24,000 nt of DNA from Candidatus Micrarchaeota archaeon (GTDB lineage: Archaea; B1Sed10-29; B47-G15). The DNA is taken from contig QMVG01000002.1 of assembly GCA_003660975.1 (NCBI GenBank), forward strand, positions 93,848-117,847, read 5' to 3'. Position 1 is the stretch's first letter. Every line of letters begins with the position of its first letter. Shown piece after piece: positions 3,816 through 22,139 of the stretch. The notes beneath the pieces were generated by a model. The model was not told the origin of the DNA and did no database searches. It saw nothing but the letters and a program-made list of their open reading frames with translations. The translations under genes and the position numbers were made by a program.

Positions 3816-5080
3816 TTTAAAAACTCTACGATTTCTTCAATGCTTTTCCTGTACTCCTTTCCTTTTCTCATATCTCTCAGAGTGAAAATTTTTTCATTAA
3901 TTTCTTTTGGTCCTACAATCAGGCAAAAAGGAATCTGTTTTGAAGAAGCATAGTCCATTTGTTTCTTGAGCTTCCTATCCATCAGGTCAATGTCACAATT
4001 AATGCCCTGCTTTCTCAGTTTTTGGCATATTTTTATGCTCTCTTTTCTTACCTCATCTGTTGCAGAGGCTATGAAAACAGCTGTCTTGCTTGGCAGCTTT
4101 GGCAACATTTTCATATCTTTCATAGCATCTATTATTCTCTCTAGACCTATGGTCGTGCCTGTGGCAGGCAGTTCTTTCCCTGCAAAAAGCCCTATCAGTT
4201 TATCATACCTGCCCCCACCCGTGATGCTTCCTACCTGTCCTTCTTTAACAACTGTCTCAAACACAAAAGAGGTGTAATAATCAAGCCCACGCGCCAATGA
4301 CAAATCAAAACTGATAACCTCATCTGGCACTCCAAACAGTTTAACAGCTTCAAAGAAGTCCTCGCTTTCCCCCACGGTCTCTTTGCTCACATAGTCCTTT
4401 ACTCTGTCAAGCACTTTCTTTGGTTTTCCCTTTATTTTTATTATATCCATGATTTCCTTTACCTTCGCATCATCAACGCCCCTTTTCTTTAATTCGTCAA
4501 TAACACCCATTTCACCTATTTTGTCTATCTTATCAACAGCGACAAAAATATCTTTCTCATTTTCAATGCCCAGCTTTTTGTAAATTTCACTCATTAGTTT
4601 CCTGTTGTTAATCCTTATTTCAAAAGATTTGAAACCCACTGCTTTTAACACGTCATTTGTTATTGCTATTATCTCAGCATCTGCCAGCACACTTTTGCTT
4701 CCAACTATGTCAACATCACATTGCCAGAACTCTCTATACCTGCCCTTTTGCGGTTGGTCATATCGCCAGACCCTGCTTATCTGATACCTCTTGAACGGCA
4801 CTGGCATATTCCTATTCATAGCCACATATCTAGCGAGAGGAACAGTTAAATCAAATCTTAAGGCAACATCTCTTCCGCCAAGGTCTTTAAATTTCCATAT
4901 CAGCTTTTCCTCTTCTCCGTACTTTTTCATTAATACATCAAGAAACTCAACAGCAGGAGTTTCCAAGGCCTCAAAACCATACCTTTCAAAAACTTCCTTT
5001 ATTTTGGATATCACATATTCCCTTATCCTCATCTCTTCAGGAGAAAAATCTCTGGTCCCCTTAGGTATTGAAAGTCTCAT
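3788..5080 (-). CDS. hisS: Histidyl-tRNA synthetase (class IIa)
   Basis: Motifs PKGTRDFSPEEM, RYDQPQKGRYREFWQCD, GGGRYD and a C-terminal anticodon-binding domain. The ATG at 5080 is preferred over the GTG at 5089 because GGTG sits 6 nt upstream of it. The 3' end overlaps the convergent EndoQ-like gene by 28 nt. Confidence 0.93.
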   Translation of the reverse strand: MRLSIPKGTRDFSPEEMRIREYVISKIKEVFERYGFEALETPAVEFLDVLMKKYGEEEKLIWKFKDLGGRDVALRFDLTVPLARYVAMNRNMPVPFKRYQISRVWRYDQPQKGRYREFWQCDVDIVGSKSVLADAEIIAITNDVLKAVGFKSFEIRINNRKLMSEIYKKLGIENEKDIFVAVDKIDKIGEMGVIDELKKRGVDDAKVKEIMDIIKIKGKPKKVLDRVKDYVSKETVGESEDFFEAVKLFGVPDEVISFDLSLARGLDYYTSFVFETVVKEGQVGSITGGGRYDKLIGLFAGKELPATGTTIGLERIIDAMKDMKMLPKLPSKTAVFIASATDEVRKESIKICQKLRKQGINCDIDLMDRKLKKQMDYASSKQIPFCLIVGPKEINEKIFTLRDMRKGKEYRKSIEEIVEFLNQEKSRSED

Positions 5081-5099
5081 ATTGCACACCTTTCAGAAG

Positions 5100-5172
5100 G
5101 GCCCAGGCCGGGATTTGAACCCGGGCTGAGGGATCCACAGTCCCTAGTGCTAACCGCTACACTACCTGGGCC
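5100..5172 (-). tRNA. tRNA-His (anticodon GUG) with genome-encoded G-1 and C73; CCA not encoded
   Basis: Minus-strand read: G(-1)-GCCCAGG-TA-GTGTAGCGGTTAGCAC-T-AGGGA-CTGTGGA-TCCCT-CAG-CCGGG-TTCAAAT-CCCGG-CCTGGGC-C. All four stems pair, the anticodon loop is CU-GUG-GA, and the extra 5' G faces the discriminator C. The downstream sequence is CTT, not CCA. Confidence 0.92.
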
Positions 5173-7777: not shown

Positions 7778-8392
7778 TCAAATCCACCCAAAAACAGCTG
7801 CTATAAGCAGGGCACCAACACCACCAAGGCCTCCCATTATTGAGACAAGAAGCGTGAGGCCATTTATTGGGATTGCTATGCCGAGAATAAATTTGACCAC
7901 AAGCAGAGCAATTAAGCCAGCGATAGCATTGGCCAAAAACTGCTTGAAAAGCCACAAGGCGACAAATGTTATTGCCAATAACAATAATCCAATTAAAACA
8001 TATGAGTAATTGCCTTTTATGCTTCCGATTAATTTCTTTACTTTTTCTGTTGTTCCCTTTTTTCTTGGAATGTATGTGTAATTGACTTGGTTTTCATCTG
8101 TCCCATTGCTGAAGAAAAGGGAAAGCGTTTTGCTTTCTGCTGAGCTCAACACAAAAACATAACCCTGTTCCACAGGATTTACTGTCAAATTCTCGCCGTC
8201 TAACACTGCTTTTTCCAGTTTGTAATTGTCCTCTATGTTGCTTATCAGGCAGCTAACGTTTTCCCTTGAAGCCATTATCTTATGCCCCTCAATATTGGAG
8301 GCAGCACACTGTATGGTAAAAGCATTAACAGTAAGCAATGTTAAAAGCAGAGCCAAGGCCGGGTAAACACTTCTTTTAGAATATTTTGGCAT
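7778..8392 (-). CDS. Hypothetical secreted/membrane protein: signal peptide, about 100-aa ectodomain, 3 C-terminal TM helices
   Basis: Start placed at MPKYSKRSVYPALALLLTLLTVNAF. The hydrophobic C-terminal third contains YVLIGLLLLAITFVALWLF, IAGLIALLVVKFILGIAI and LLVSIMGGLGGVGALLIAAVFGWI. No family recognised. Confidence 0.55.
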   Translation of the reverse strand: MPKYSKRSVYPALALLLTLLTVNAFTIQCAASNIEGHKIMASRENVSCLISNIEDNYKLEKAVLDGENLTVNPVEQGYVFVLSSAESKTLSLFFSNGTDENQVNYTYIPRKKGTTEKVKKLIGSIKGNYSYVLIGLLLLAITFVALWLFKQFLANAIAGLIALLVVKFILGIAIPINGLTLLVSIMGGLGGVGALLIAAVFGWI

Positions 8393-8427
8393 ATGCTTAT
8401 ATAGGTGCAAGGTTCCATAAATATCTC

Positions 8428-9060
8428 ATGGTTGAGTATACAAAGGAGCAGCAGCAAATAGCTCGTTCTTTGCTTAAAGGTCCGAAAACAATAGAGGAAT
8501 TGAGAAAGGACCTTAACATGCCTACAGATGAGATATTAAAACATCTTAAAGAACTAATAAAGCTAAAGGTTGTGGAAAAAAGTGGCTTCCCAACCAAATA
8601 CAAGCTTCTGGATGTAATTGTTAACAGGGTGAAATCAGGAAAAGAGAGCCGCCTAAGCGATTACCCTTATGAGGTGCTAATGATAATAGAAGGCATGAGC
8701 AGTGATAAGGAAGCTCTTGAAAAGCAGATGCAGATGCTAAAGGAGAAAATAGAATCAGAGAAAGGCATTGACATAATAAAGCTGAACTTGGCAGATGTCG
8801 TAAAAAATGAGAATAACTTCACTACGTTTATCAGCCTGCAGTTCGGCTGTGAGACATTTGCCGATTTGATTAGGATGATTATACAATATGGCCCTTCCAG
8901 CGTTGAAATTCTAGCTCCGCAAGAAGCTGAATTGTCAATAAGAGAAATGCAGGAAATTTCAAATGACGTGATGTCTGCTGTCCATTACTACATCACACTT
9001 ATAGTTCAACTCAAGCAGGCCATGGGGAAAATGGCAGAAGGAGGGCATTTAAACAAATGA
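8428..9060 (+). CDS. Hypothetical protein with N-terminal winged-helix (ArsR/TrmB-like) DNA-binding domain
   Basis: QQIARSLLKGPKTIEELRKDLNMPTDEILKHLKELIKLKVVEK has the pattern of a wHTH recognition unit. The C-terminal 140 aa are unrecognised. The ATG at 8428 avoids overlapping the divergent gene, and TTATATA lies about 26 nt upstream. Confidence 0.45.
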   Translation: MVEYTKEQQQIARSLLKGPKTIEELRKDLNMPTDEILKHLKELIKLKVVEKSGFPTKYKLLDVIVNRVKSGKESRLSDYPYEVLMIIEGMSSDKEALEKQMQMLKEKIESEKGIDIIKLNLADVVKNENNFTTFISLQFGCETFADLIRMIIQYGPSSVEILAPQEAELSIREMQEISNDVMSAVHYYITLIVQLKQAMGKMAEGGHLNK

Positions 9061-9208: not shown

Positions 9209-11899
9209 ATGAGAAGTTTGAATTTAAAGAGGGTGGCGGCCATCGCAGCTGGAGCTGCAATGGTTGGTAGCACACTTGCTACTGGTTTGGCTGCAGTAAA
9301 CACCCAAGGTGACGTCACAAGCTTTGTACAGAACGTCAAAGCAAACCTAGACGACGTGGAGATCGTCGTCGGAACGAACGGAGCTGCAATCAGTGACGGA
9401 ATACAGGCAGCTAAGTTAGCAGCTGTTCTTGCAACCCTCAACTTTGAGGAAGCAACTGACGTAGCAGCAGTACCTGACACATCAGGAGTAACAATCGGCG
9501 AGAAGTCAGTAAAGGTCTCAACATCAACAGGAGGAACAATAGTACAGCCATCAGAGGTAGAGTTCCCAATAGTCTACCCAGCAGTAGTGGATTACTCCTC
9601 AAGCGTAAGTTATTCTACCGGTTCAAAACCAGCAACCTTGACGCCAGATGTCCTCCCAGGTGTTCTGACCAGGTCAACATTTGAGACAATAACATCAGGA
9701 GGAACAACTGTTGACAGGATGCTTGAGGAGCAGATAGTGATAGACAGCGGCAATGTCAAGTACGCAGAGGACACAGACCCAGACGGACACGGGCTGTACT
9801 GGAACCTCGGAGGCAAGGACCACATCCACTACAAGCTCGACTTTACGAAGAGCGGAAATGGTCTGCCAACAGGTTCTGGCAACTACTCAGAAACGCCTGA
9901 GATAACACTTCTGGGACACACCTATGGAATAAACACAAGAAAGCTAGCTGACAATGTATTTGAGCTCTACGCAGGAGACAAGATAACACTGACATCAGGA
10001 GATGAGTACGAGACAGCAGACGGTTACACAATAAAAGTCAACTTAGTGAGCCAAATAACTAGTGAAAGCACCACACGTGGAAAGGTCTCCTTGACCGTGA
10101 CATCTCCTGACGGAGACGAGCAGACAAGAAGCATCCAGGAAGGAAACTCATACGAGTTCTTCGGAGGAGCAGTCACAATAACAGTTGACAGCGCAGCAAC
10201 AGGTTTCACTCAGGAGAACGTCCAGACAGGAGTTGCAACCCTTAGGATCGGAACAGGCTCATTGAAGTTTGAGAAAGGAGATCCATTCCCACTTGACCCT
10301 GCCTGGAAGGTCAAGGACATAACCTGGAGCTCTGGATACCTGCAGTCAATAGACATAACATACGGAAACCCAGACGGAGAAACATACTTTGAGAAGGGAG
10401 ACTTCCAGGGAGATGTGAAGCACGGGCTTGCGCAGGGAGTAATCGTGCCAGGTCCAAAGGACGCAGACGGAAAATCCCTGTTCAACATCCAGCTTGCAGG
10501 CTTTGGAGGTTCAACCCAGATAGACACAACAACACTTGAGTTTGAGGGAGACGGCAGCGACTCAGATGCTGTAATGCACGTGACATGGGTTGACCCAGAC
10601 GGCTTGACAAATGTGCTGGATGCCAGCAAGGACGAATTGGCTCCATTCCACAAACTAGTTGCTGGTTCAAATGAGACATTGAACGCGACAACAGAGGCCA
10701 ACTACTTCATAGTGAACGACAAGCTATTTGTCTTCAAGGGATGGACAACAGAGGGGCTTCCAACGCATTTCGTAAAGCCAAGGTTCGCAATAGGCTCAGC
10801 AACAGGTCCTGTAATTGAGGGAGACCCTGTTGACATGTCAAAGGCATCACCAACAGGACACTTCAAGTACACATCAGGAGCTTCAGCAACAGGAGGCAAC
10901 ATAGACTGTACATTCACGTACTACAGCAATGCCTCAAAGGACGATGGCTGGATACACATAGCATACGATGCCGCAACATGTGACATAATACCTGACCAAG
11001 TGAACGCAGGAATGGAAGCAGTAATGGACCAAGCAGCTCAGAGCGGTACGCCTGTAACAATGGACCTCAGGTATGTGAGGGGCGCAAAGCTGAACGCCTC
11101 AAGCGAGACCAATGTGGATGGAAAGACATTCCCTGTTGTGTTGCTCTGGGAGGCGAACCAGACATACCCAGGAGCTGACAGGCCAATTGTTATAATGTAT
11201 GACGGCTCAACAACAACTGGTTTCAGCAAGGATTACACAGGCATACTGGCAGGAATTCCAACAAACATAACCCTCTTAGGAAATGGAGCTAAGGGAGGAG
11301 CAGTCCTGAACATGTCAGAGTACACAGACAACAAGCTGGTTGACACACCTGCAAACAGTGCCTCAACAAGCAGCACAATACAAAACAAATACCACATAAC
11401 AGCCTACAGCTCTGAGTTGTCTGCGGATGGAAACAAGTTGACAATTGTCGTGCCAGAGGCCGCAAGGTCAGCTGTTGTGAAGGTGGCCAAGACCATTGAG
11501 GAAACAGAAGGCGAGGAAGGACAGGCATACTACACGCTGTCTGAGGGAGATTCAATCAGCGGCGTGACAATAGAAGAGATCAACGCAGAGATAACTGGTC
11601 TGGACAGCATCACCTGCGGTGCAGCTGAGGGAACACTCTACTCCAAGAAGACTGCACTTGACCCAACAGCTCTGGTGACGACGGACACAGCCGCAACAGC
11701 AACATACCAGATTGTTGTTGGAGGTCCATTTGTCAACAAGTTGGCACAGGCCATTGACACAACTGGACTGACAACGACAGGAGCTGGTGCACAGTACCTC
11801 ATCGCAACAGATGATGGTACAAAGTTGCTGGCTGCTGGTTACACAGCAAGCGACACTGCGGCTGCAGTTGACGAGTTAATCCGTCTGTTGCAAGGATAA
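9209..11899 (+). CDS. S-layer protein (Methanococcales/Thermococcales-type N- and C-terminal S-layer domains)
   Basis: Signal peptide KRVAAIAAGAAMVGSTLATGLAA, then VVGTNGAAISDGIQAAKLAAVLA. The C-terminus YQIVVGGPFVNKLAQ...LLAAGYTASDTAAAVDELI matches the S_layer_N/S_layer_C patterns as I remember them. The protein is acidic, rich in Thr/Gly/Ala/Asp, poor in Lys, and carries 8 N-X-S/T sequons. Codon usage is strongly biased and differs from its neighbours. Confidence 0.85.
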   Translation: MRSLNLKRVAAIAAGAAMVGSTLATGLAAVNTQGDVTSFVQNVKANLDDVEIVVGTNGAAISDGIQAAKLAAVLATLNFEEATDVAAVPDTSGVTIGEKSVKVSTSTGGTIVQPSEVEFPIVYPAVVDYSSSVSYSTGSKPATLTPDVLPGVLTRSTFETITSGGTTVDRMLEEQIVIDSGNVKYAEDTDPDGHGLYWNLGGKDHIHYKLDFTKSGNGLPTGSGNYSETPEITLLGHTYGINTRKLADNVFELYAGDKITLTSGDEYETADGYTIKVNLVSQITSESTTRGKVSLTVTSPDGDEQTRSIQEGNSYEFFGGAVTITVDSAATGFTQENVQTGVATLRIGTGSLKFEKGDPFPLDPAWKVKDITWSSGYLQSIDITYGNPDGETYFEKGDFQGDVKHGLAQGVIVPGPKDADGKSLFNIQLAGFGGSTQIDTTTLEFEGDGSDSDAVMHVTWVDPDGLTNVLDASKDELAPFHKLVAGSNETLNATTEANYFIVNDKLFVFKGWTTEGLPTHFVKPRFAIGSATGPVIEGDPVDMSKASPTGHFKYTSGASATGGNIDCTFTYYSNASKDDGWIHIAYDAATCDIIPDQVNAGMEAVMDQAAQSGTPVTMDLRYVRGAKLNASSETNVDGKTFPVVLLWEANQTYPGADRPIVIMYDGSTTTGFSKDYTGILAGIPTNITLLGNGAKGGAVLNMSEYTDNKLVDTPANSASTSSTIQNKYHITAYSSELSADGNKLTIVVPEAARSAVVKVAKTIEETEGEEGQAYYTLSEGDSISGVTIEEINAEITGLDSITCGAAEGTLYSKKTALDPTALVTTDTAATATYQIVVGGPFVNKLAQAIDTTGLTTTGAGAQYLIATDDGTKLLAAGYTASDTAAAVDELIRLLQG

Positions 11900-11912
11900 G
11901 GGCTCTAACCCC

Positions 11913-11935
11913 CTTTTCCCTTATTTTTGTTTTTA
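11913..11935 (+). terminator. Oligo-T archaeal terminator after the S-layer gene
   Basis: CTTTTCCCTTATTTTTGTTTTT contains T4, T5 and T5 runs within 35 nt of the stop codon. Confidence 0.6.
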
Positions 11936-11958
11936 CAAAGCTCTGAGCGTTAGCTCTG

Positions 11959-11968
11959 TTTAAATATA
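11959..11968 (+). promoter_or_regulatory. TATA box for the downstream six-gene operon
   Basis: TTTAAATATA is centred about 27 nt upstream of the ATG at 11991, which suggests a leaderless transcript. Confidence 0.5.
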
Positions 11969-11990
11969 AGAAAAATGTTAAGTGATAACT

Positions 11991-12548
11991 ATGAAAAAAA
12001 GGACTAAAGCAGGATCAAAAAAGCAAGCGCAGTGGAAATACGGCCTTATCACCGTAATTGCAATTATCATTATTGCCTCAATAATCCTTTTAAGCTCCTC
12101 GCCTGTTAGCAGGTATAGGATAGGAAACACTGATGCTTACATCGTAGGCCATGATGCAGTAAACAGAATAAAACAGCTTCTGGAAGAATCCTCTCGCGTA
12201 ATTATTATAGCAGAAGGAGACAACCACACAACCCAAACAACCGGCTTTATATCATCTGCAGTAACATATCTTGCGAGGGACTTTCCGAAGCGACTAAATA
12301 GCTCAGACATCTATGGCATAGAGTATTACGGGGGCAGGGCCATTGGTTGCATAGGAGAGAATGCAAGCCTGGACTTTTGCCTCAATTTCAAGCCCTCTGA
12401 TAAGGAACTGCTCATAAAAATTAAATACCCAAATTACAGCGAGAACAATATTTTAGTTTACGATAACACCATTGAGTTCAGAGGCAAGTCAGGAGCAGAT
12501 ACCCTATCTCTTGTGAAAGCTTTTGAACAGCTCTTCCTAGGGAAGTGA
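11991..12548 (+). CDS. Hypothetical N-terminally membrane-anchored protein (first gene of the operon after the S-layer gene)
   Basis: Basic N-terminus MKKRTKAGSKKQAQWKY, one TM helix (GLITVIAIIIIASIILLSS), then an extracytoplasmic domain of about 145 aa. I prefer the ATG at 11991 to the GTG at 11982. No family recognised. Confidence 0.55.
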   Translation: MKKRTKAGSKKQAQWKYGLITVIAIIIIASIILLSSSPVSRYRIGNTDAYIVGHDAVNRIKQLLEESSRVIIIAEGDNHTTQTTGFISSAVTYLARDFPKRLNSSDIYGIEYYGGRAIGCIGENASLDFCLNFKPSDKELLIKIKYPNYSENNILVYDNTIEFRGKSGADTLSLVKAFEQLFLGK

Positions 12549-12552
12549 TTTT

Positions 12553-13461
12553 TTGAGATTGAACGTCCTGTGGTTTACACTATCTCTTGTGCTTATTTTT
12601 CTTTTGTATGAGCTCAGCGGCGCAAAAGTGCAAGGAATTAACCTTGCATACTTCTCCCTTTCTTCATTGCTTTTTCTCGCATCAACCTTTTTTTGGGCCT
12701 TAGCCTGGATCTATGTTATGAAAGCACCAACAAGAAAAGCACTTATTATACACCTAAGGTCTCTGGCAGGTGTTTTTGCTCCTATGGGTCTTGGAGCTGA
12801 CATGCTCAGAAGCTTTTGGGCATCAAAAGAAAAAGGAATGAAACCAGACAGGGCTTTGGCTTGCAGTTTGATAGTTAAGTTTTTCAAGTTTATTTTAATG
12901 TTCCTACTTTTACTGTTCAGCGTAATTGCCCTGAGCAGCCGTTCATATGATTTCCCTCAATACGTGTTCATCTTTATAAGCATGCTTTTCTCTGCTCTCA
13001 TAGGTCTTTTGATAATTATCCTGCTGAGGTCAAGAAAAACAATTGCATTTATCCACCATTTCATTAGGAAGTTATTCTTATGGCGCTTTCATGAGGAGCT
13101 TAACCTTAACTTTGACAGGTTGAGGTTGAGAGACATTGCCTTTATAATCATTGTGCTTATGCTGTCTGTTGTTTTTGAGATAGGGGCTGCCTGGGCTGCT
13201 TTCTTGTCCGTTTCTCAAGAGCTTCCTCTGCTACATATCATTATATTTTCCAGCGTTGCTTCCTCTCTTGCGCTGATAACCGTGTCGCCACAGGGGCTCG
13301 GATTCGTTGAGGCAGGCTCTTACTTTCTTCTGTCAATGGGCTACTTTTCGCTTTCAAGAGTGGTTATAGGCAATGTTTTAATAGTATGGAACATAGTAAG
13401 ATTATGGATTCCCAGCATTGTGGGTCTATTTGCTTCACTTGTAAAGAGGTCTGATAGATGA
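12553..13461 (+). CDS. Polytopic membrane protein, flippase-like / UPF0104 (LPG-synthase TM-domain) family candidate
   Basis: About 8 predicted TM helices. The segment GVFAPMGLGADMLRSFWASKEKGMKPDRALACSLIVKF resembles the conserved P.G.GGE..R...L.K.G block of this family. TTG start. The stop overlaps the next ATG (ATGA). Confidence 0.5.
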   Translation: MRLNVLWFTLSLVLIFLLYELSGAKVQGINLAYFSLSSLLFLASTFFWALAWIYVMKAPTRKALIIHLRSLAGVFAPMGLGADMLRSFWASKEKGMKPDRALACSLIVKFFKFILMFLLLLFSVIALSSRSYDFPQYVFIFISMLFSALIGLLIIILLRSRKTIAFIHHFIRKLFLWRFHEELNLNFDRLRLRDIAFIIIVLMLSVVFEIGAAWAAFLSVSQELPLLHIIIFSSVASSLALITVSPQGLGFVEAGSYFLLSMGYFSLSRVVIGNVLIVWNIVRLWIPSIVGLFASLVKRSDR

Positions 13462-14141
13462 TAACAGTTGTGATGCCTGCGTTTAATGAAGCCGAGAAAG
13501 GCATTGAAAATAACTTGAAAGAGCTGTGCAGGTTAAAAGAAGTTGACGAGATTGTTGTTGTTAATGACGGAAGCAGCGATGACACAGCCAAAATCGTCCA
13601 AAGCATTGCTAGAAGAAACAGGAAAGTTAAGTTAGTGAACCATGAGAGAAACAAAGGAAAAGGAGAAGCCATGAGGACAGGTGTTAAAAATGCTAGGGGA
13701 GACCTTATTGTTTTCATTGACGCCTCACAGTTTAGTATTTCAGACATTCCAAAGGTAGTAAAGAAAGCGAAAAATTATGACATAGTGATCGGCATTAGGG
13801 ACTTCAGCAAGATACCTCTGCTCAGAAGAATAAATAACCTCCTATCAAGGCTCGCTGTTTTCATAGCAACAGGCAGACATATCAGCGACAGCATAAGTGG
13901 CTTTAGGGCAATAAGAAAAAAAGACTTCATTGCACTTGATACTAAGGAAAGGGGCTATGCAATAGAAATAGAGATGAACTTCAAGGCATTAAGCAGGGGG
14001 ATGACTGTAGGTGAAGTTCCGGTTAAGGTCTACTACGAAAAAGAGTCCTCTTTACCCACATTGGGCTCTTTAAAGAGATCCGTATACGAGTCCTGCTTTA
14101 CTGTGCTTGGTGTGTTTAGGACCTGGCTTGGGCTGTGGTGA
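13458..14141 (+). CDS. GT2-family glycosyltransferase, polyprenol/dolichol-phosphate hexose synthase-like (Dpm1/AglD/AglJ class)
   Basis: VVMPAFNEAE, VVVNDGSSDDT, GKGEAMRTG, VFIDAS (DXD-type) and SGFRAIRK are canonical GT-A fold GT2 motifs. At 227 aa it is the catalytic domain only. Confidence 0.85.
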   Translation: MITVVMPAFNEAEKGIENNLKELCRLKEVDEIVVVNDGSSDDTAKIVQSIARRNRKVKLVNHERNKGKGEAMRTGVKNARGDLIVFIDASQFSISDIPKVVKKAKNYDIVIGIRDFSKIPLLRRINNLLSRLAVFIATGRHISDSISGFRAIRKKDFIALDTKERGYAIEIEMNFKALSRGMTVGEVPVKVYYEKESSLPTLGSLKRSVYESCFTVLGVFRTWLGLW

Positions 14142-14142
14142 T

Positions 14143-14559
14143 ATGGTAAGGAAATATTATACATTCAAACAGTTCAGGGAAATGCTTTTTGTAATTACCA
14201 TAATCCTTATATCTTTGCTGGCCATTTTACTTTCTTTGATTTCACCATACAAGCAGGAAGCAACTGTTTATGAACTTTGGCTGTCTAATTATTCTTCAAC
14301 AGTAGAGAAAGGCGAGAACATAACTTTTTTCATAAACAGCAACAGCGAGAGCAACAAGTTGTTTTCAATTGCCATATATTTTGACAGTAAATTGAAGGCA
14401 AATTTTCTGAGCACTTTGAACAAAAATAGTATAAAAGTAAACCTGCCAAACGACCTTGATAAAGGAAAGCACAGGATTTCTGTTGTGGTTTTTGATACCT
14501 CTACAGGAGATTGGTTTGGTCAAGGGCATCAGTTGTTCTATACGGTGAACGTCTTATGA
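14143..14559 (+). CDS. Hypothetical small membrane-anchored protein with a beta-rich ectodomain
   Basis: Start placed at MVRKYY (GGTGA SD just upstream). One TM helix (LFVITIILISLLAILLSLI) and a domain of about 100 aa with NYSS and NITF sequons. The stop overlaps the next ATG (ATGA). Confidence 0.5.
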   Translation: MVRKYYTFKQFREMLFVITIILISLLAILLSLISPYKQEATVYELWLSNYSSTVEKGENITFFINSNSESNKLFSIAIYFDSKLKANFLSTLNKNSIKVNLPNDLDKGKHRISVVVFDTSTGDWFGQGHQLFYTVNVL

Positions 14560-15980
14560 AAAAGATAACAGTTTCATTGTTGCTTGCTTTGATATTCATT
14601 ACAGGGCTCGCATTAAGGCTAATGCCTGCGCTCAATTCAGAGCTTCCACTTAGGTTTGATTCTTACTATCACGCCCGTGTTGCAGAGTTGATAAATAGAG
14701 ACATGTCTATCCCATCTTGGGAACCATGGCCTTATGGTGGAAGGCCCCATGTATACCCTCCTGCCTATCCGCTGCTTTTGCTTTTTATTTCCAAGCTTTT
14801 TATGACAACTACTTTGAATGCAAGCAGGTTTGTACTTCCTTTCATAAGCTCTTTGATTGTTGTAGCAGCTTTTTACTTTGTTAGGTCATTTAAGTCAGAA
14901 AGGGCAGCATTGATAGCCAGTTTTCTGATTTCAGTTAACCCTTATCTTGTGTCATCATCATACGATTCTCCCCAAGTGATAGGGATACTCCTTCTTATTA
15001 TCGCAGTGTATTTTGTTTTCAAAAAAGAATTTTTTAAAGCATCCATCTTGCTAGCATCAGTTTTTTTCTTTAATCCATTTAGCTTAGTTATGTTCTCAGT
15101 TCCGCTTTTTGCCTATCTGTTGATAAGGGACAAAACACTCAACACTGCAAAGACATTCTCATTACCTATAATCACCTCCATTCTCTGGCTGCTTTTAAAT
15201 TTCAACGCTACGTCCTGCTATAACAATTGGATAGGGCCTTTATTCATAATGAAAAAAATAAACCCCTGGATAAATTTCGCTACACCTATATTCATATTTC
15301 TTCCAATTATAGCCTTTGTTATGATTAAAGACCTTAAGGACAAGTTCAGGTTTTTCTGGTTTATCTCTTCAATTGTTTTTGTGGCAGTATTCATGCTTCA
15401 TTTTATTACTCCTATTTTCCATCCTTGGAGGGCAGATGTTTATCTAATGCTTGCCCTCTCTTTTCTGTTTTCCGATTCTTTGTCAAGCCTAAACTGGAAA
15501 AACCTATTTCTGTTCATAACACTCTCAATGATAAGCCTTGCCTCCCTTTTCTCTGTTTTCCTAGCATCTCCCTTGATGATGCCCCCCCTCACACAGAACG
15601 AGTACAAACTGGTTGATTTTATCAGCAAAAACAATAAGGGGCTGCCGATATTGGCAAATCATGACATGTGCTCAAATATTCTAACCTTGACAAATAAAAG
15701 CTGTCTCTTGGACTTGAACTTTGAGTGCATACCAAATGCAACGAGTTGGTACGACTACGAACAGTTCTTCTGGGTAGCAAGCAGGCAGGAGATGAGAGAC
15801 ATTATAAATAGGAATCCAGATATATCCTATATTGCATACTCCTCAGGAGATTGGGGAAGGCAGTTCTTGGAATCTATGGATGTTGACAAGGTATATTCAG
15901 CGTGGACTGATTCGTCCAGAGATGCGAGCCTGTATAAGGTTAACAGAATTAAAGGCAATATAACGTATATGGAGGGCTGA
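14556..15980 (+). CDS. GT-C fold membrane glycosyltransferase, STT3/AglB-like paralogue 1 (no WWDYG motif)
   Basis: Polytopic protein of 474 aa. The first external loop RFDSYYHARVAE...PYGGRPHVYPPAYPLLL resembles the STT3/AglB (F)DP(W/Y)(F/Y)HxR...YPP region. The C-terminal soluble domain is about 130 aa. It aligns along its length with the next gene. Confidence 0.55.
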   Translation: MKKITVSLLLALIFITGLALRLMPALNSELPLRFDSYYHARVAELINRDMSIPSWEPWPYGGRPHVYPPAYPLLLLFISKLFMTTTLNASRFVLPFISSLIVVAAFYFVRSFKSERAALIASFLISVNPYLVSSSYDSPQVIGILLLIIAVYFVFKKEFFKASILLASVFFFNPFSLVMFSVPLFAYLLIRDKTLNTAKTFSLPIITSILWLLLNFNATSCYNNWIGPLFIMKKINPWINFATPIFIFLPIIAFVMIKDLKDKFRFFWFISSIVFVAVFMLHFITPIFHPWRADVYLMLALSFLFSDSLSSLNWKNLFLFITLSMISLASLFSVFLASPLMMPPLTQNEYKLVDFISKNNKGLPILANHDMCSNILTLTNKSCLLDLNFECIPNATSWYDYEQFFWVASRQEMRDIINRNPDISYIAYSSGDWGRQFLESMDVDKVYSAWTDSSRDASLYKVNRIKGNITYMEG

Positions 15981-15983
15981 GAA

Positions 15984-17414
15984 GTGAACAAAAGGTTGTT
16001 GTTGCTTTTCATTTTCTTTTTTGTATTTTTCTCACTCCCACAACTGCTAAGATTCGCGCTTTACTCTCCGTCTATCATAGGCACAACCCCTTATTTTCAC
16101 ATTAGAATGGCCGAATTGCTTCTCTCAGGTCAAGCTTATGATTCTTTGTCATTTGGAGGCAGATATTACACATACCCACCTGCCTATCACTGGCTTTTGG
16201 CAATTAGTCCTTTGAAATATCTTTTGAACCCCTTCATAGGTGCTTTGGGCGTAGTGCTTCTTTATTTCATCGCAAGAGAATTGGGCTTTTCAGAGGAATC
16301 TGCTTTATTCTCATCAGCGCTTCTGGGTTTTATCCCTGGCTATTTGTATCTTTCTGGACACATCAACCCGAGAATGCCCGCGCTCTTTTTCTTAATGCTT
16401 ACATTCCTCTTTCTCCTAAAGTCAAGAAAAGATAAAAGAATGTTTTATTTGTCTTTTCTCTCAATGCCAATCGTTTTTCTCATACATCCCCTCGTGGGAG
16501 CAGTTGCCGTCTTTTTGGTTCTTTTTCTTTTCAGGAGCATGTTTAAAAGGGTTGCCCTGCTTTCTCTCTTTTCTTTATCTGTATTTCTTCTGTGGTTCCT
16601 GCCATTAGCTCTTAACTTAGGTCTTCCGCAATATAGCTCATTCTATTCTGTTTATGTGGAGCTGAAAACAGGCATTCAATACTTCATATTTGAATACGGT
16701 TTGGTGAGCGATTCCATCACAGCTTTTATGCTGCTTCTGTCTTTATACGCAATATTTAAGGTGAAAGGCAAGAGCTTTGTGAAGGAATGGGCAATATTGG
16801 CTTTCTTCCTTCCACTACTGATAGGAAATAGGATAAATGAGCAACTGCTGTTTCCAGTAGCTCTTTTGGCTGCTGAGGTTTTTATTAATCATTGGAATAG
16901 GTTCTGGAAAGACATCAAGTTAGATTTCGTGCCTGTTAAGGTCTGGACAGCTTTGTTTATGCTTTACGTTTCTGTAGCTGCAATACTTGCCGCAGGAGCT
17001 CTTATGTTTTTCCCACCGTCAGCAGAAGAATACCACGCAATGCAGTGGCTGTCATTACATAGTCCAGAAAATGCCGTGGTATTCGCTGATTGGTTCTACG
17101 GTCATTGGATAAGTGCTATTGCAAAAAGGAAGAATGTTATGGACGCTTATGCCGAATACGCGCCGAACCTGGAACAGAGGTTCAGGGACAGCAACAAAAT
17201 ACTTTACGGCTCTGATATAAATGTTACTATATCTTTGCTTAGGAAATATAATGTGTCTTATGTTTACTATGAAAGGCCAAGAGATGCGGAGTTATGCTCT
17301 GGTTTTCCATATATAACACGCTATCCATACTTTAAAAAGCTCTACCAGGATAAGAGAATTTACATATACAAGGTAGATTATCTTGGCAACTCAACACCAG
17401 TGCCTATCTGCTGA
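15984..17414 (+). CDS. GT-C fold membrane glycosyltransferase, short STT3/AglB-like oligosaccharyltransferase candidate (paralogue 2)
   Basis: GTG start with a GGAGGG SD. The loop TTPYFHIRMAE...GGRYYTYPPAYHWLL is STT3-like. VVFADWFYGHWISAIAKRKNVMD aligns to the AglB WWDYG(Y/H)WI block, and LLRKYNVSYVYYE aligns to the following AglB/STT3 block. At 476 aa it is shorter than any AglB I know of. Confidence 0.6.
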   Translation: MNKRLLLLFIFFFVFFSLPQLLRFALYSPSIIGTTPYFHIRMAELLLSGQAYDSLSFGGRYYTYPPAYHWLLAISPLKYLLNPFIGALGVVLLYFIARELGFSEESALFSSALLGFIPGYLYLSGHINPRMPALFFLMLTFLFLLKSRKDKRMFYLSFLSMPIVFLIHPLVGAVAVFLVLFLFRSMFKRVALLSLFSLSVFLLWFLPLALNLGLPQYSSFYSVYVELKTGIQYFIFEYGLVSDSITAFMLLLSLYAIFKVKGKSFVKEWAILAFFLPLLIGNRINEQLLFPVALLAAEVFINHWNRFWKDIKLDFVPVKVWTALFMLYVSVAAILAAGALMFFPPSAEEYHAMQWLSLHSPENAVVFADWFYGHWISAIAKRKNVMDAYAEYAPNLEQRFRDSNKILYGSDINVTISLLRKYNVSYVYYERPRDAELCSGFPYITRYPYFKKLYQDKRIYIYKVDYLGNSTPVPIC

Positions 17415-18541
17415 CAGTTGTTAAATAAACAGTCGATAACAACAGTGGCATAGCTTCCTTTTGGCAGGGAAAAATCCAGCAAGTATCTCCCCTCAGCTTC
17501 TTTTACTATTTTCATATCTCCTATTTCTATCCACAGTTTTCTTCTGGTTCCCTTGCTTCTCAAATCATGAAGGTTGTTTACCCTAAAGTCTTCTAATGTC
17601 AAACCATGTCTTTCTAATATCTCCTGTTCCAATTCATTTTCCAATTCCAGCGCATATCCGTATATGGGGCCAGTCTCATAGTCCAGGCCTCTTTTTATGC
17701 ACTCTGCTAGAAATTCGTTAAAGAGCTTGGCTTGGTAAGCGTGAACAAACATCTTTAATAACGAGCGGGGTAGCATTCTCAGTGCCCTTAGGTAATTTCT
17801 TGGCTGTCTTGACAGGGAGACGAGCATTTTTCTTTCAAAGCGCAGGCGCTTTGGAAAATATTTTAAAGCTTCCTTGAAGTTCATCTCCTCAGCCAGTTTT
17901 TTTCTTGCCTTTATTGAATTTTCATCTTCTCTTTCATCAACAGCTGTTAAGTATGTCATAACTGCTTTTTCAAAATCTTTTTTTACTATGCTTTCTCCAA
18001 CATCGGCAGTTATCGGCCTTATAACTCCAAAGCGCTGTTCTCCGAAAAAATTGGGAAATTTATCCATGCGCCTAGGCTCTCTATCAGAGTAAACCCTTAT
18101 TATGAAATGGTTTCCTACAAGGTCTCCTATGAAAACCCCTCTGTCCCTGTAAGCCAATGGAACAAGCTCTATATTTTCCACATTGAATTTTTTTAGCTCT
18201 TCCTTTCTAACGCCCTTTATGCTTATGAGTTGCGAGCTTATTGACCTCTTGTCCTTTGTTCCAGCAAAAGAGACGCTTCTATTAGGAATGTTTAGCTGTT
18301 TAGCAATTTTTTCAACAGCCAACAACGTGTCCCAGTTTCTCTTTTTCATTACGCATAGAAGGTATTCCCCTCTTCCCCCTTGAAACCTATATTTCTTGTT
18401 TACAGACAGAACACCGTAATCTTTTGTTATCTCTTCAACAATAAAATCCTCTGCTTTTTCCTTAATTTTGTATGCGCTAGTTCCTGTATCTGAGGATTGC
18501 ACCGATACCACCAAAGCCCTTAAGGAACTGTTGCCCCCCAT
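17378..18541 (-). CDS. truD: tRNA pseudouridine(13) synthase TruD/Pus7 family
   Basis: AEDFIVEEI near the N-terminus, the catalytic FAGTKDKRSISSQ block (GxKD), NFFGEQRFG and KGSYATV. The start is uncertain: the ATG at 18541 gives a 65-nt overlap with aRF1, and GTG codons at 18511 and 18502 are alternatives. Confidence 0.85.
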   Translation of the reverse strand: MGGNSSLRALVVSVQSSDTGTSAYKIKEKAEDFIVEEITKDYGVLSVNKKYRFQGGRGEYLLCVMKKRNWDTLLAVEKIAKQLNIPNRSVSFAGTKDKRSISSQLISIKGVRKEELKKFNVENIELVPLAYRDRGVFIGDLVGNHFIIRVYSDREPRRMDKFPNFFGEQRFGVIRPITADVGESIVKKDFEKAVMTYLTAVDEREDENSIKARKKLAEEMNFKEALKYFPKRLRFERKMLVSLSRQPRNYLRALRMLPRSLLKMFVHAYQAKLFNEFLAECIKRGLDYETGPIYGYALELENELEQEILERHGLTLEDFRVNNLHDLRSKGTRRKLWIEIGDMKIVKEAEGRYLLDFSLPKGSYATVVIDCLFNNCQQIGTGVELPR

Positions 18542-19568
18542 TCGTGCTTGTGCTTATTATTTCCACTTTTGTTCCCATTTCTTCGGCAATGCTCTCAAGT
18601 TCGTCTATCTTTTCATCATCCAAGCCCTCGGATAGCATTAAAAGTTCCACCTGTCCTCTTTCAAGAGCTTCTCTTACCTCTTTTTCGCCATATGCAGCCA
18701 GGTTTCCAACACTTGCTTCTTTTATGAACCTATCAACAAGCTTCTTTTCTTTGGCTGTTTCCATCTCCTCAATAATCTCTCCGCTTTTGTCTAAAATTTC
18801 CTTTATTCCAAACTCGTCAGTATAACCTGTGTCCACCACACCAACAATTTTTTTCTTGACCTCTGGCCTTAGATATGGCCCGTCAATAAATCCGTACTTT
18901 GTAGGTCCGCTTCCTCCTGCTATGATTGCCTTTACTTTTGGGTCAGAAAAAGCTTCGTTTATGACTTCAGCAACCTTTTTGTAGAAATCCACAGCTGCTT
19001 CCTCTATAAGTCTCGTAAATCTCATAGCACTTTGGCCTCCCTTGTGGTGTTTTCCAGGAACGTTGGATGTCATATGTCTTATAATGTTCAAGTGCTTGCC
19101 TTCAATCAGGGCGATTGTTGCCTCTCTCCTGTCCATTGCAAAAGCACCATAAATCTCCTTTGCTCCAAGCATGTCTTCAAGTGGCTTAGTGTAGAAACTT
19201 GAATCGCACCTGTAAATCTGAACGTTTATGGGCTTTGGAGGGATGAGAGTGATTAATTTTATATCTGGCTGGTCGTTTCGGCTGCTAACATTACCACAGA
19301 AAATAGCAACCCCCTTATCGCCTGTTTTGTGAACCCCTTTTAACACTTGAAGTATCCTGTCAATAGCTGCCTGGACATTTTTTCGTGTACTCTTGCTTTT
19401 TATGTTTGCTGCCTGGCCGTATTCACTTCTTAACCTTGCGCTTATTTCATTAACATTTGCGTTTGGTGGAATGTAAACACTAATCAATTCAGTTCCCTGT
19501 CCCCTTATGCTTTTGAGATACTTTAACTCCTTTTTTAGCTGGTGCATTTCCTTTGAACTTTCAGGCAT
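18477..19568 (-). CDS. prf1: Peptide chain release factor aRF1
   Basis: NIKS motif (QAANIKSKSTRKNV), GGQ motif (GKHHKGGQSAMRF) and the typical C-terminus FGGIGAILRY. At 363 aa it is a short form lacking the domain-3 insertion. Confidence 0.92.
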   Translation of the reverse strand: MPESSKEMHQLKKELKYLKSIRGQGTELISVYIPPNANVNEISARLRSEYGQAANIKSKSTRKNVQAAIDRILQVLKGVHKTGDKGVAIFCGNVSSRNDQPDIKLITLIPPKPINVQIYRCDSSFYTKPLEDMLGAKEIYGAFAMDRREATIALIEGKHLNIIRHMTSNVPGKHHKGGQSAMRFTRLIEEAAVDFYKKVAEVINEAFSDPKVKAIIAGGSGPTKYGFIDGPYLRPEVKKKIVGVVDTGYTDEFGIKEILDKSGEIIEEMETAKEKKLVDRFIKEASVGNLAAYGEKEVREALERGQVELLMLSEGLDDEKIDELESIAEEMGTKVEIISTSTNGGQQFLKGFGGIGAILRYRN

Positions 19569-22139
19569 TCAATCACCCTTTCTTAGTGTTTTCCACAGCT
19601 CGACAACAGAGAAGACAACAACTGTCAGCAGTATTACTCTTATCCAATCAACAGCATGCAACGGCGTTGTTTTGAAGATAACATCAAGCACAGGCGTTTG
19701 AACTATTAGCACCTGAATTAAAAGTGATGACACCACTGCAAAGCCCATCCACTTGTTAGACAGCAAGTGCAATCTGCTTAGCCTTCTTTTAGACTTGAAG
19801 TTTACTGCTATCATTGTTTCTAAAAATACAATCGTGGTGAACGCAACAGTTCCTGCCTTTCCTGTCCCGGCATTTAACTCCCAGTAAAACGCCAGCACAG
19901 TTATTATTCCCACAAGCAAGCCGATGAATGCAATAGTTATCATTTCTTCCCTATTTAAAGGATTATCCTCCTTTGGGTTTGGTTTTCTTTTCATAACATC
20001 CTTTTCAGCTTTTTCAACACTTAATGCGAGGGCCGGCAAGCCATCAGTTATCAAATTCATCCACAGTATTTGAACAGGCAGCAAGATTAACGGCAGTCCT
20101 GCCATCATGCTGCTCGCAACAGCCAAAACCTCTCCAGAATTACAAGAGAGTAAATACGTTATTGACTTTTTTATGTTGTCATATATCACTCTTCCTTCTT
20201 TTACAGCTTCAACTATGGTGGTGAAGTCATCATCCTCTATTACCATATCCGCTGCCTCTTTCGCAACATCTGTTCCCTTCATTCCCATCGCTATGCCTAT
20301 ATCTGCCTTTTTTAGAGCAGGAGCATCGTTAACACCATCTCCTGTCATGCCTACAATCTCTCCATTTTGTTGTAAAGCTCTCACTATTCTAAGCTTGTGT
20401 TGTGGAGAAACTCTGGCAAAAACAGCGATGCTCCTCACATCTCTTTTTAGCTCCTCATCAGACATCTTTTCCAATTCCCTTCCATTGACAACTCTTCTCT
20501 TTCTGAGCAAGCCAACATCCTCAGCGATTGCCTTGGCCGTTATCTCGTGGTCTCCTGTTATCATAATTACACTTATCCCTGCTTTCTCGCAGTTCTCTAT
20601 TGCTTCCTTTACTCCTTCTCTTGGTGGGTCTCTCATGGCAATCAAACCAACAAAAACAAAATCTTTCTCGTCTTTTTCACTAAAATCTCTGTTTACCTTT
20701 TCTTTCACAGCCATCGCAAGAACACGCAGTGCCTTACTGTTTAGGTCCTTAAACACCCTCATTATCTCCTCTTGCTTCCGCTTTGTTAAGCGCTTTAGCC
20801 TCCTGCCTTCTCTGTAGTAGCTACAATTTTCAATCACGATTTCTGGAGCCCCTTTCATATATGCCTTTAGAATTCCCTTCCTTTCGTATACAACAGTCAT
20901 TTTTTTCCTTTCGCTGGAAAAGCTAACCTCCTTAACCTTTTTGTAATCAACGAGCTTTATGCCTGCTTTTATTGACGCTTCAAGCAATGCATTTTCCGTC
21001 GGGTCTCCAAGCACAACGCCTTCAACAATTTTTGAATTGTTGCAGAGCGCACCTATCTTAAGGGCTTTCAGCTGGTTATATGATAGTTTGTCTTTTATTG
21101 AAACCAATTTGTTGTCAGCATATATCTTTTCCACAGTCATCTTGTTCTCTGTTATCGTGCCAGTTTTGTCAACACATAGATACGTGGCACTACCTAAGGT
21201 TTCCACGATTGGCAGCCTTTTCACAAGACTTTTCTTTCTGGCCATTCTCTGAATGCCAAAAGCAAGAGCTAACGTAACAATAGCAGGAAGGCCTTCTGGG
21301 ATAACTGCCACTGCCAAGCTTATAGATGTGAGTATCATTTCAATAATCTCAATGCCTTTCAAGACTCCCATAATAAATATTAATATGATTATGAAGAGAA
21401 TGAGAATGCCAAGGTTTTTGCTGAATACTGCCAACCTTTTCTGCAAAGGAGTTTCCTCTTTTTCTGTGCTCTCAACTAGATGCGCTATTTTTCCTATTTC
21501 GGTATCCATGCCTGTTTTGCAAACAACTGCCTTTGCGTTGCCCTTTACTACCAAACTGCCTTTGAAGAGCATGTTGAGCCTTTCACTGACTAAGCTGGCC
21601 TCTTTGACAATCTTAGCTGTTTTCCTCACAGCTTTTGACTCACCTGTGAGCATTGACTCATCGACATATAAATCGTTTTCATAGATTATTCTGGCATCTG
21701 CTGGTACAGCAGAACCTTCTGATAAAATAATTATATCTCCAGGCACCAATTCTCTTGAAGGGATTTGCATTTCTTTCCCATTTCTTATTACAATGCTCTT
21801 AGGGTGGCTTAATTTTCTTAAGGCCTCTATGGCTTTGTCTGCCTTGTATTCCTGCACAAAGCCAAAGACAGCGTTTAAAATTACTATTGCCAAGATGATA
21901 AGAGCGTCTATTGTATTTCCTATGAAAAATGAAAAAGCTGTTGCAAATATAAGCACAATCACAAGAGGGCTCTCAAATTGAGACATAAATATTTTTAACA
22001 GTTTGTGCTTCTCTTCCCTGCGTATCTCATTGTAGCCGAATTTTTTCAACCTACGTTTTGCCTCTGTCTCGCTTAAACCATTAACACTTGTTTTTAGTAT
22101 CTCAATTGCTCTCTTGCTGGGGAGGGAATAGTAATCCAT
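19569..22139 (-). CDS. P-type ATPase, P2 (Ca2+/cation-transporting, SERCA/PMCA-like)
   Basis: N-terminal cation-ATPase domain (GLSETEAKRRLKKFGYNE), TGES, phosphorylation site CVDKTGTITENKM, MITGDH, TGDGVNDAPALKKADIGIAMG and 10 TM segments. Confidence 0.9.
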   Translation of the reverse strand: MDYYSLPSKRAIEILKTSVNGLSETEAKRRLKKFGYNEIRREEKHKLLKIFMSQFESPLVIVLIFATAFSFFIGNTIDALIILAIVILNAVFGFVQEYKADKAIEALRKLSHPKSIVIRNGKEMQIPSRELVPGDIIILSEGSAVPADARIIYENDLYVDESMLTGESKAVRKTAKIVKEASLVSERLNMLFKGSLVVKGNAKAVVCKTGMDTEIGKIAHLVESTEKEETPLQKRLAVFSKNLGILILFIIILIFIMGVLKGIEIIEMILTSISLAVAVIPEGLPAIVTLALAFGIQRMARKKSLVKRLPIVETLGSATYLCVDKTGTITENKMTVEKIYADNKLVSIKDKLSYNQLKALKIGALCNNSKIVEGVVLGDPTENALLEASIKAGIKLVDYKKVKEVSFSSERKKMTVVYERKGILKAYMKGAPEIVIENCSYYREGRRLKRLTKRKQEEIMRVFKDLNSKALRVLAMAVKEKVNRDFSEKDEKDFVFVGLIAMRDPPREGVKEAIENCEKAGISVIMITGDHEITAKAIAEDVGLLRKRRVVNGRELEKMSDEELKRDVRSIAVFARVSPQHKLRIVRALQQNGEIVGMTGDGVNDAPALKKADIGIAMGMKGTDVAKEAADMVIEDDDFTTIVEAVKEGRVIYDNIKKSITYLLSCNSGEVLAVASSMMAGLPLILLPVQILWMNLITDGLPALALSVEKAEKDVMKRKPNPKEDNPLNREEMITIAFIGLLVGIITVLAFYWELNAGTGKAGTVAFTTIVFLETMIAVNFKSKRRLSRLHLLSNKWMGFAVVSSLLIQVLIVQTPVLDVIFKTTPLHAVDWIRVILLTVVVFSVVELWKTLRKGD

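Follow-up and report, generated by a model that had tools for sequence, protein, structure and literature searches.

The 24,000-nucleotide window analyzed here comes from a metagenomic contig of 127,970 bp (ENA ERZ650341 NODE_11; DRN74 locus tags) that carries the NCBI label "Candidatus Micrarchaeota archaeon". It contains an S-layer protein gene followed on the same strand by a module of six closely packed genes, which encode an anchored orphan protein (unk1), a flippase-like protein, a family 2 glycosyltransferase (GT2), a second anchored orphan (unk2) and two paralogous glycosyltransferases of the GT-C type (GT-C1 and GT-C2; Table 1). All seven plus-strand open reading frames listed in a first-pass annotation of this DNA are present, and direct reading of the sequence agrees with its account of the gene junctions (−4 to +4 nucleotides, two ATGA overlaps and one GTG start 3 nucleotides past a stop codon). 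From unk1 to GT-C2 the junctions are +4, −4 (ATGA), +1, −4 (ATGA) and +3 nucleotides, the last involving the GTG start, which has GGAGG upstream. That unk1 and the flippase-like gene lie so close together follows from a TTG start at 12553; the public gene call misses it and begins the flippase-like gene at the ATG at 12718 instead (247 amino acids). The TTG start is supported because the Pfam match of the 302-amino-acid form begins at residue 8; orthologs are called at 300–305 amino acids. The same annotation described all six products as membrane-associated, but this applies to only five of them, which have hydrophobic membrane segments, whereas no hydrophobic or transmembrane segment was found in GT2.

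Table 1. Positions in the window of the S-layer gene, the six-gene module and adjacent features (aa, amino acids; nt, nucleotides)
Feature	Position	Strand	Length (aa)	Description
S-layer protein gene	9209..11899	+	896	Methanococcales/Pyrococcus 'MJ' type; TIGR01564, PF05124
T-rich tract, predicted archaeal terminator	11910..11934	+		T-runs at 11924-11934; read from sequence, 3' of the S-layer stop
TATA-like box TTTAAATA, predicted promoter of the six-gene operon	11959..11966	+		32 nt before the unk1 ATG
unk1	11991..12548	+	185	N-in signal-anchor helix and ~150-aa alpha/beta ectodomain; orphan family
Flippase-like protein	12553..13461	+	302	Polytopic, MprF N-terminal domain type (PF03706/UPF0104); TTG start; ~8 hydrophobic segments
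GT2	13458..14141	+	227	Polyprenyl-phosphate sugar-synthase type (DPM1/GtrB/ArnC/AglJ-like); start overlaps flippase stop (ATGA)
unk2	14143..14559	+	138	N-in signal-anchor helix and ~100-aa beta-rich ectodomain; ATGA overlap with GT-C1
GT-C1 ('mini-STT3')	14556..15980	+	474	Constant transferase of the module, present in all loci
GT-C2	15984..17414	+	476	GTG start; GT-C1 paralog in the variable slot of the module
Winged-helix protein	8386..9060	+		MJ0538 family; PF27325 precomputed match; weak TrmB/helix-turn-helix matches; directly 5' of the S-layer gene

The S-layer protein passes both curated models of its family, scoring 51.7 bits with TIGR01564 (cutoff 25) and 37.7 bits with PF05124 (gathering score 23.9). 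It has a single N-terminal hydrophobic segment, the signal sequence, and a C-terminal membrane anchor is absent. Its reading frame is 47–49% guanine plus cytosine (GC) versus ~40% in the rest of the window, and the six-gene operon is at the background value. A predicted terminator and a TATA-like box can be read 3' of the S-layer gene, where the first-pass annotation had reported a terminator and a fresh TATA box, and the short distance from the TATA-like box to the unk1 start codon implies a leaderless transcript or a very short leader. The GC-rich hairpin and T-runs are kept in all six orthologous intergenic regions examined, and in five of these six diverged regions they are followed by a TATA-like box 30–48 nucleotides before the start, which indicates that the layout is not a chance feature. 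Matches to sigma-70 promoters and intrinsic terminators were no commoner than in shuffled sequences, but these are bacterial-type scans that are not relevant to an archaeon.

Profile searches support the synthase, flippase-like and GT-C assignments originally given to the core trio of the module. The flippase-like protein matches PF03706 at 1.5e-20 (74.3 bits, gathering score 33.4) over profile positions 5–302 of 302, and its TIGR00374 score (32.6 bits) is below the cutoff of 43.2; no PDB match was found for it by profile search. GT2 matches PF00535 at 1.7e-29 (103 bits), and its closest solved relatives in the PDB are Pyrococcus PfDPMS (5mlz, 2e-12) followed by ArnC and GtrB, with E-values ranging from 2e-12 to 2e-11. 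GT2 also matches the AglJ, PpgS and ArnC models of NCBIfam with E-values of 1e-17 to 1e-19, yet its scores fall far short of the equivalog cutoffs, none of which is reached. By its sequence matches, GT2 is clearly of the polyprenyl-phosphate sugar-synthase class.

Judged by both sequence profiles and predicted structure, GT-C1 is closest to STT3/AglB/PglB and not to the protein O-mannosyltransferases (PMT), as had been proposed for both GT-C proteins. A profile built from 13 orthologs matched STT3A in the PDB at 5.6e-6, with the GT-C1 motif RFDSYYHxR falling on EFDPYFNYR and SYDSPQ on SYDNE, although the position of the SYDNE Glu is taken by Gln or Pro. The Asp of the first of these motifs (Asp35, in external loop 1, EL1) is invariant, and a further motif reads HPWR. 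The AlphaFold model of GT-C1 (predicted local distance difference test, pLDDT, 86.8; predicted template modeling score, pTM, 0.86) shows the multi-helix membrane domain and C-terminal external domain of a GT-C fold, the ectodomain being small at ~110 amino acids. When this model was searched with Foldseek, the top 14 matches were STT3 and AglB structures (yeast and human STT3; Archaeoglobus AglB) and PglB ranked 18–21. Matches to STT3, AglB and PglB had E-values from 7e-9 to 7e-7 and query template modeling scores (TMq) of 0.55–0.66, whereas PMT ranked 31 at ~1e-2.

Nevertheless, the sequences of the two window GT-Cs are not those of canonical GT66 enzymes, since WWDYG is absent and the curated thresholds are not reached. 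GT-C1 scores 22.1 bits with PF02516, just below the gathering score of 24.5, and 26 bits with the archaeal STT3 model TIGR04154, for which the cutoff is 450. Some relatives of GT-C1 do pass PF02516 (28.2 bits at locus L004 and 26.7 bits for the homolog P0060). Across all frames, the 440 kb of related loci contain no W[WFY]D[YWFN]G motif, and no AglB gene was found within 10 kb further along the contig on one side of the window.

For GT-C2, Pfam alone would contradict the proposed STT3 affinity: the protein exceeds the gathering scores of PMT (29.3 bits against 22.7) and PMT_2 (26.9 against 26.1), but only over residues 80–214 (~135 residues). No MIR domain match appeared in the Pfam scan. When the families are compared with hhalign, however, GT-C2 proves to be a full-length paralog of GT-C1 (probability 100%, E = 1.5e-44, 407 columns), and its C-terminal motif DWFYGHWISAIAKRKNVMD aligns to WWDYGYQIGGMADRPTLVD of STT3. 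The 3' ends of GT-C2 (+) and of the neighboring TruD gene (−) overlap convergently by 37 nucleotides (window positions 17378–17414). In several related loci, too, the final gene of the module runs convergently into TruD.

The orphan proteins are anchored in the same manner but differ in their ectodomains. In unk1, six Lys/Arg residues precede the helix and give a positively charged N-terminus. Sequence searches of Pfam, NCBIfam and the PDB returned no match for this protein, and its AlphaFold model (pLDDT 84) has no significant fold match, the best being a SIS domain (E = 4.5e-3, template modeling score 0.38); SIS-like or flavodoxin-like resemblances are too weak to use. Profile searching found 27 homologs, all of ~190 amino acids and without a Pfam domain, compared with one from a single-sequence search. 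The homologs whose loci were examined all lie in an S-layer-linked module, and unk1 is present in every module locus. For unk2 we obtained only weak beta-sandwich, lectin and DUF1616 matches. An unk2-like segment is, however, fused to the N-terminus of the GTCx proteins, which are GT-C2-type paralogs found in some related loci and whose N-terminal extension matches the unk2 profile. In addition, one related genome (L026, JGI1358J11329_10000015) has unk2, GT-C1 and GT-C2 twice, with the second set convergent to the main module and facing it (9523–12896 on the plus strand and 12893–20465 on the minus strand). Because of this fusion and this joint duplication, we argue that unk2 behaves as a detachable subunit of a GT-C, and on these sequence grounds it is likely the partner of the GT-C encoded next to it.

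We collected related loci from look-ups of GT-C1 homologs and from scans of genome and metagenome collections, which together gave more than 20 loci from at least 10 distinct lineages. Wherever a contig reaches far enough, the genes run from the MJ0538-type regulator through the S-layer gene, unk1, the flippase-like gene, GT2 and (unk2) to GT-C1, and the module adjoins the S-layer gene in every such locus. The first-pass annotation had named two computable outcomes as grounds for abandoning its proposal, namely GT-C proteins belonging to unrelated families and a block never syntenic with S-layer genes, and we observed neither. The constant core consists of unk1, the flippase-like gene, GT2 and GT-C1; unk2 is missing only in L004. 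The genomes that carry the module are of the DPANN type and labeled Micrarchaeota, range from 37 to 57% GC and encode TruD proteins only 45–47% identical to that of the window. Because the arrangement of S-layer gene and module is kept across genomes as diverged as these, it is old.

The slot after GT-C1 varies among loci. It holds GT-C2 in the window and in L003, L006, L014–L021 and L027, is empty in L009 and L023, and is filled by a GTCx protein of 664–754 amino acids in L011, L012, L022, L024 and L025. GTCx passes the Pfam EpsG threshold, but we rejected EpsG as its identity since it aligns with GT-C2 over ~400 residues, and the EpsG match is probably a generic resemblance. In L004 (10001–12067) and L011 (10001–12025), GT-C1 itself continues at its C-terminus into a DUF2334/polysaccharide-deacetylase domain whose RIDD and HGxxH motifs are intact, and the length of the open reading frames points to such a fusion in L022, L024 and L025 as well. 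In all, GT-C1 has this domain in four to five lineages, and the domain would face outward.

In our preferred reading, which we rate a little short of an even chance, the six genes are one operon for lipid-carrier-dependent glycosylation of the S-layer polypeptide at the outer face of the membrane, an archaeal variant of the three-component logic of synthase, flippase and GT-C. GT2 would use a nucleotide sugar to charge dolichyl or polyprenyl phosphate with one sugar on the cytoplasmic side, probably while held at the membrane by the flippase-like protein, whose gene overlaps its own. The PF03706 protein would then move the lipid-linked sugar to the outer leaflet, where GT-C1, probably together with unk2, would pass it onto a surface acceptor. 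GT-C2 or its substitutes, such as GTCx, might add a second residue or extend the first, or might serve as a non-catalytic partner, and unk1 would be an obligatory outer-face accessory. The product would be a glycan only one or two sugars long. What the analysis shows directly are the families and folds, the order and junctions of the genes and their conservation; which lipid serves as carrier, which way it is flipped, what the acceptor is and what unk1, unk2 and GT-C2 do are inferred. TIGR01564 also includes the S-layer protein of a cultured Micrarchaeon, for which staining indicates a glycoprotein (bioRxiv 10.1101/2021.04.28.441871). Our candidate acceptor, with a likelihood just under one half, is the polypeptide made from the S-layer gene directly before the operon, because of this glycosylated relative, the deep linkage of that gene to the module and the protein-modifying nature of the nearest enzyme family. 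As for the sugar, the deacetylase fusions, together with UDP-GlcNAc synthesis genes near some GT-C1 relatives (described below), hint at an N-acetylated amino sugar.

Several observations weigh against this reading. WWDYG is absent from GT-C1, in which the aligned position reads LANHDxC(S/A)N, and GT-C2 lacks the EL1 Asp, having Thr at its position (GTTPYFH) and no acidic residue in loop 1. The paralogs are oddly complementary in this respect, since GT-C1 has the EL1 Asp without WWDYG and GT-C2 has a remnant of WWDYG, DWFYGHWI aligned to WWDYGYQI, without the Asp. The module has one GT2 and two GT-Cs, so that a single donor would have to serve both transferases. No PF03706 protein is known to be a flippase of polyprenyl-phosphate sugars, and a literature search for the PF03706 accession returned nothing relevant. 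N-X-S/T sequons are not enriched in six S-layer orthologs (6–14 observed against shuffle means of 7–12), although we regard this count test as uninformative. Finally, the whole neighborhood is collinear among the related loci, including the regulator gene upstream and genes for histidyl-tRNA synthetase, a radical-SAM protein, TruD, aRF1 and Dph2. Synteny alone therefore cannot prove a substrate link between the module and the S-layer protein, as their adjacency may be inherited gene order.

Such unspecific linkage would also be expected if the module had another target. It might modify lipids or some other envelope polymer, unk1 and unk2 might even be S-layer anchors, and the adjacency to the S-layer gene might reflect a shared neighborhood of envelope biogenesis. 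Lipids or teichoic acids are the targets of other GT-Cs, ArnT and YfhO among them, GTCx passes the threshold of EpsG, and the S-layer gene ends in a predicted terminator of its own while the operon starts from a predicted promoter of its own. Moreover, an S-layer protein without its own membrane anchor needs anchor proteins, and a need for anchoring has also been raised for the Micrarchaeum S-layer protein (bioRxiv 10.1101/2021.04.28.441871). Nevertheless, we consider a target other than the S-layer quite improbable. The unk2-like fusion to a GT-C paralog and the co-duplication of unk2 with GT-C1 tie unk2 to the transferase, the EpsG match is discounted by the alignment of GTCx with GT-C2, and adjacency to the S-layer gene is kept across very deep divergence.

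GT-C1 belongs to a large family, here called mini-STT3. With a limit of E ≤ 1e-3, an exhaustive profile search returned 1,739 cluster representatives, and with E ≤ 1e-10 it returned 333. The matches listed are nearly all 430–510 amino acids long, and the few named members sampled are "hypothetical protein" entries from metagenome-assembled genomes of Micrarchaeota and Diapherotrites. The loop motif xD(S/T)(Y/F)(Y/F)HxR is common to the family, and its C-terminal motif is poorly conserved, reading LANHD, xxEGHW or WDYGH (the last, for example, in P0108). With this shared loop motif and this range of C-terminal motifs, the family appears to be a branch of the STT3/AglB lineage that has become shorter. 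On a more distant archaeal contig (L033, 5643–14647), whose TruD is 38% identical to that of the window, the mini-STT3 homolog P0060 stands in the order TruD, PF00953 (AglH/WecA-type), GT4, GT4, P0060, GT4 and ABC transporter. This is where an oligosaccharyltransferase is expected in agl clusters, and the context of P0060 points at least as much to an ancestry in N-type oligosaccharyltransferases as to O-glycosylation. Genes for a type IV pilus/archaellum-like ATPase lie nearby on the same contig. At two Diapherotrites-type loci, mini-STT3 members lie a few kb from GlmS/GlmM/GlmU-like genes. Proteins of 310–323 amino acids with an odd combination of a helix-turn-helix domain and an S_layer_C match are encoded beside GlmS at Diapherotrites-type loci (L032, 4079–5011, minus strand; L034, 16331–17302, minus strand).

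The L033 cluster bears on a narrower version of the S-layer reading, in which the module is a minimal N-glycosylation system: GT-C1 would be the equivalent of AglB, GT2 would be AglJ/AglK-like and produce the linking sugar on dolichyl phosphate, and once flipped this sugar would go to Asn residues of the S-layer protein. Apart from the company that P0060 keeps, this version is consistent with STT3, AglB and PglB being the nearest solved folds and sequences to GT-C1, with AglJ being among the best NCBIfam matches of GT2 and with WDYGH being kept by some family members. It is also consistent with euryarchaeal AglB, which uses monophosphate-linked donors. We nonetheless think it fairly unlikely, given that LANHD replaces WWDYG in GT-C1 at a position poorly conserved across the family, that GT-C1 falls short of the thresholds of PF02516 and TIGR04154, and that sequons in the S-layer orthologs are unenriched. 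Whether linkage is to Asn or to Ser/Thr is a matter of STT3 affinity and the L033 context, which argue for Asn, set against the loss of WWDYG and the absence of sequon enrichment, which argue against it.

Alternatively, the GT-Cs might decorate a glycan rather than a polypeptide, adding terminal sugars to a pre-attached N-glycan or other glycan in the manner of AglD/AglR/AglS or GtrABC. Of the characterized GT-Cs that receive a polyprenyl-phosphate monosaccharide from a GT2, most have glycans as acceptors (GtrC, AglS, ALG and Emb/Aft), the variable second GT-C slot resembles serotype-like glycan diversification, and loss of the sequon-binding motif would fit a non-peptide acceptor. Decoration is likewise consistent with the literature on three-component systems (PMC11127046). 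However, no glycan-assembly genes lie within ~10 kb of the module in any of the more than 20 loci, the genomes are small and of the DPANN type, and the fold of GT-C1 is nearest to protein-modifying oligosaccharyltransferases and not to ALG or GtrC-type enzymes. We therefore regard decoration of an existing glycan as improbable as well.

The remaining genes around the module are ordinary archaeal housekeeping genes (GINS, aIF2-alpha, histidyl-tRNA synthetase, M18 peptidase, TruD, aRF1, P-type ATPase and Dph2). The winged-helix protein encoded 5' of the S-layer gene has an ortholog of 200–224 amino acids at the same place in all related loci that reach that far, and we mention it as context only, as a possible regulator of the S-layer gene. 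Elsewhere in the window, a tRNA-His(GTG) gene (5099–5171, minus strand) lies ~10 nucleotides upstream of the histidyl-tRNA synthetase gene (3788–5089) on the same strand.

S-layer glycosylation in genome-reduced DPANN archaea is barely known, and the locus bears on this question with a compact, conserved six-gene candidate that could be transferred as a unit, together with its presumed substrate, to a tractable host. The mini-STT3 proteins, which lack the sequon-binding WWDYG, bear on the evolution of oligosaccharyltransferases and on their minimal functional size. The module would also give a PF03706 protein its first proposed role as a translocator of polyprenyl-phosphate sugars. A bolder reading, which we consider doubtful, is that mini-STT3 represents an unrecognized class of protein glycosyltransferase. 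It would be a minimal oligosaccharyltransferase that works independently of sequons, or else the O-glycosyltransferase still missing from archaea. With GT2, the MprF-type flippase and two anchored subunits, it would then form the smallest self-contained protein-glycosylation pathway known, and throughout a deep lineage of DPANN archaea its genes would stay fixed beside that of the S-layer substrate.

Among known systems, the Ppm1/Pmt pathway (GT39) resembles the module in that a polyprenyl-phosphate sugar made by a GT2 would serve a GT-C that modifies a secreted protein, and GT-C2 exceeds the PMT and PMT_2 thresholds over its ~135 residues. For the glycosylation of surface proteins by a GT-C, TfpW provides a precedent (bioRxiv 10.1101/2020.04.19.049825). 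In contrast to PMT, the module GT-Cs have no MIR domain and GT-C2 has no acidic residue in loop 1, and PMT structures fall far below STT3 as matches to GT-C1 (~1e-2). The archaeal O-glycosylation pathway was still called elusive in 2021 (PMC8241124); we see in this locus a reasonable candidate for that pathway and nothing beyond a candidate.

The first-pass annotation had likened the trio to AglD/AglR/AglS of Haloferax volcanii, which reportedly add the final mannose to the S-layer N-glycan by charging dolichyl phosphate, flipping the charged lipid and transferring the sugar at the outer face. The logic is the same as that proposed for the module. The likeness would be one of logic and probably not of homology, however, because the flippase-like protein would lie outside the families of AglR and GtrA; AglR is a Wzx-type flippase and not a PF03706 protein. 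The Haloferax acceptor is, moreover, a pre-existing N-glycan, and the Haloferax genes are not known to form a compact operon behind the S-layer gene.

The enzymes STT3/AglB/PglB (GT66) provide the best fold and profile matches to GT-C1. The EL1 Asp and SYD(N/S) motifs align, the ectodomain of the module GT-C begins at the location of WWDYG, and a homolog stands in an AglH/GT4 cluster. The module GT-Cs differ in being only ~470 amino acids long, compared with 640–870 residues for the matched chains, in their ectodomain of ~110 amino acids, and in having LANHD (GT-C1) or DWFYGHW (GT-C2) in place of WWDYG. In addition, the GT-C1 gene is paired with a monosaccharide-type GT2 and not with an oligosaccharide assembly line.

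Like GtrA/GtrB/GtrC in O-antigen glucosylation, CsbB/GtcA/YfhO in lipoteichoic acid modification and ArnC/ArnEF/ArnT, the module encodes a synthase, a candidate translocator and a GT-C together, and its donor would likewise be a lipid-monophosphate monosaccharide used outside the membrane. The outward-facing deacetylase of some GT-C1 variants recalls ArnD in the ArnT pathway. Three-component glycosylation of this kind is an established mechanism (PMC11127046), from which the module nevertheless departs in several ways. Its candidate translocator is a PF03706 protein of the MprF type and not a GtrA/SMR or MATE protein, its GT-C is STT3-like and not GtrC-, PMT- or ArnT-like, it includes two conserved anchored orphans, and it is archaeal and fixed behind an S-layer gene.

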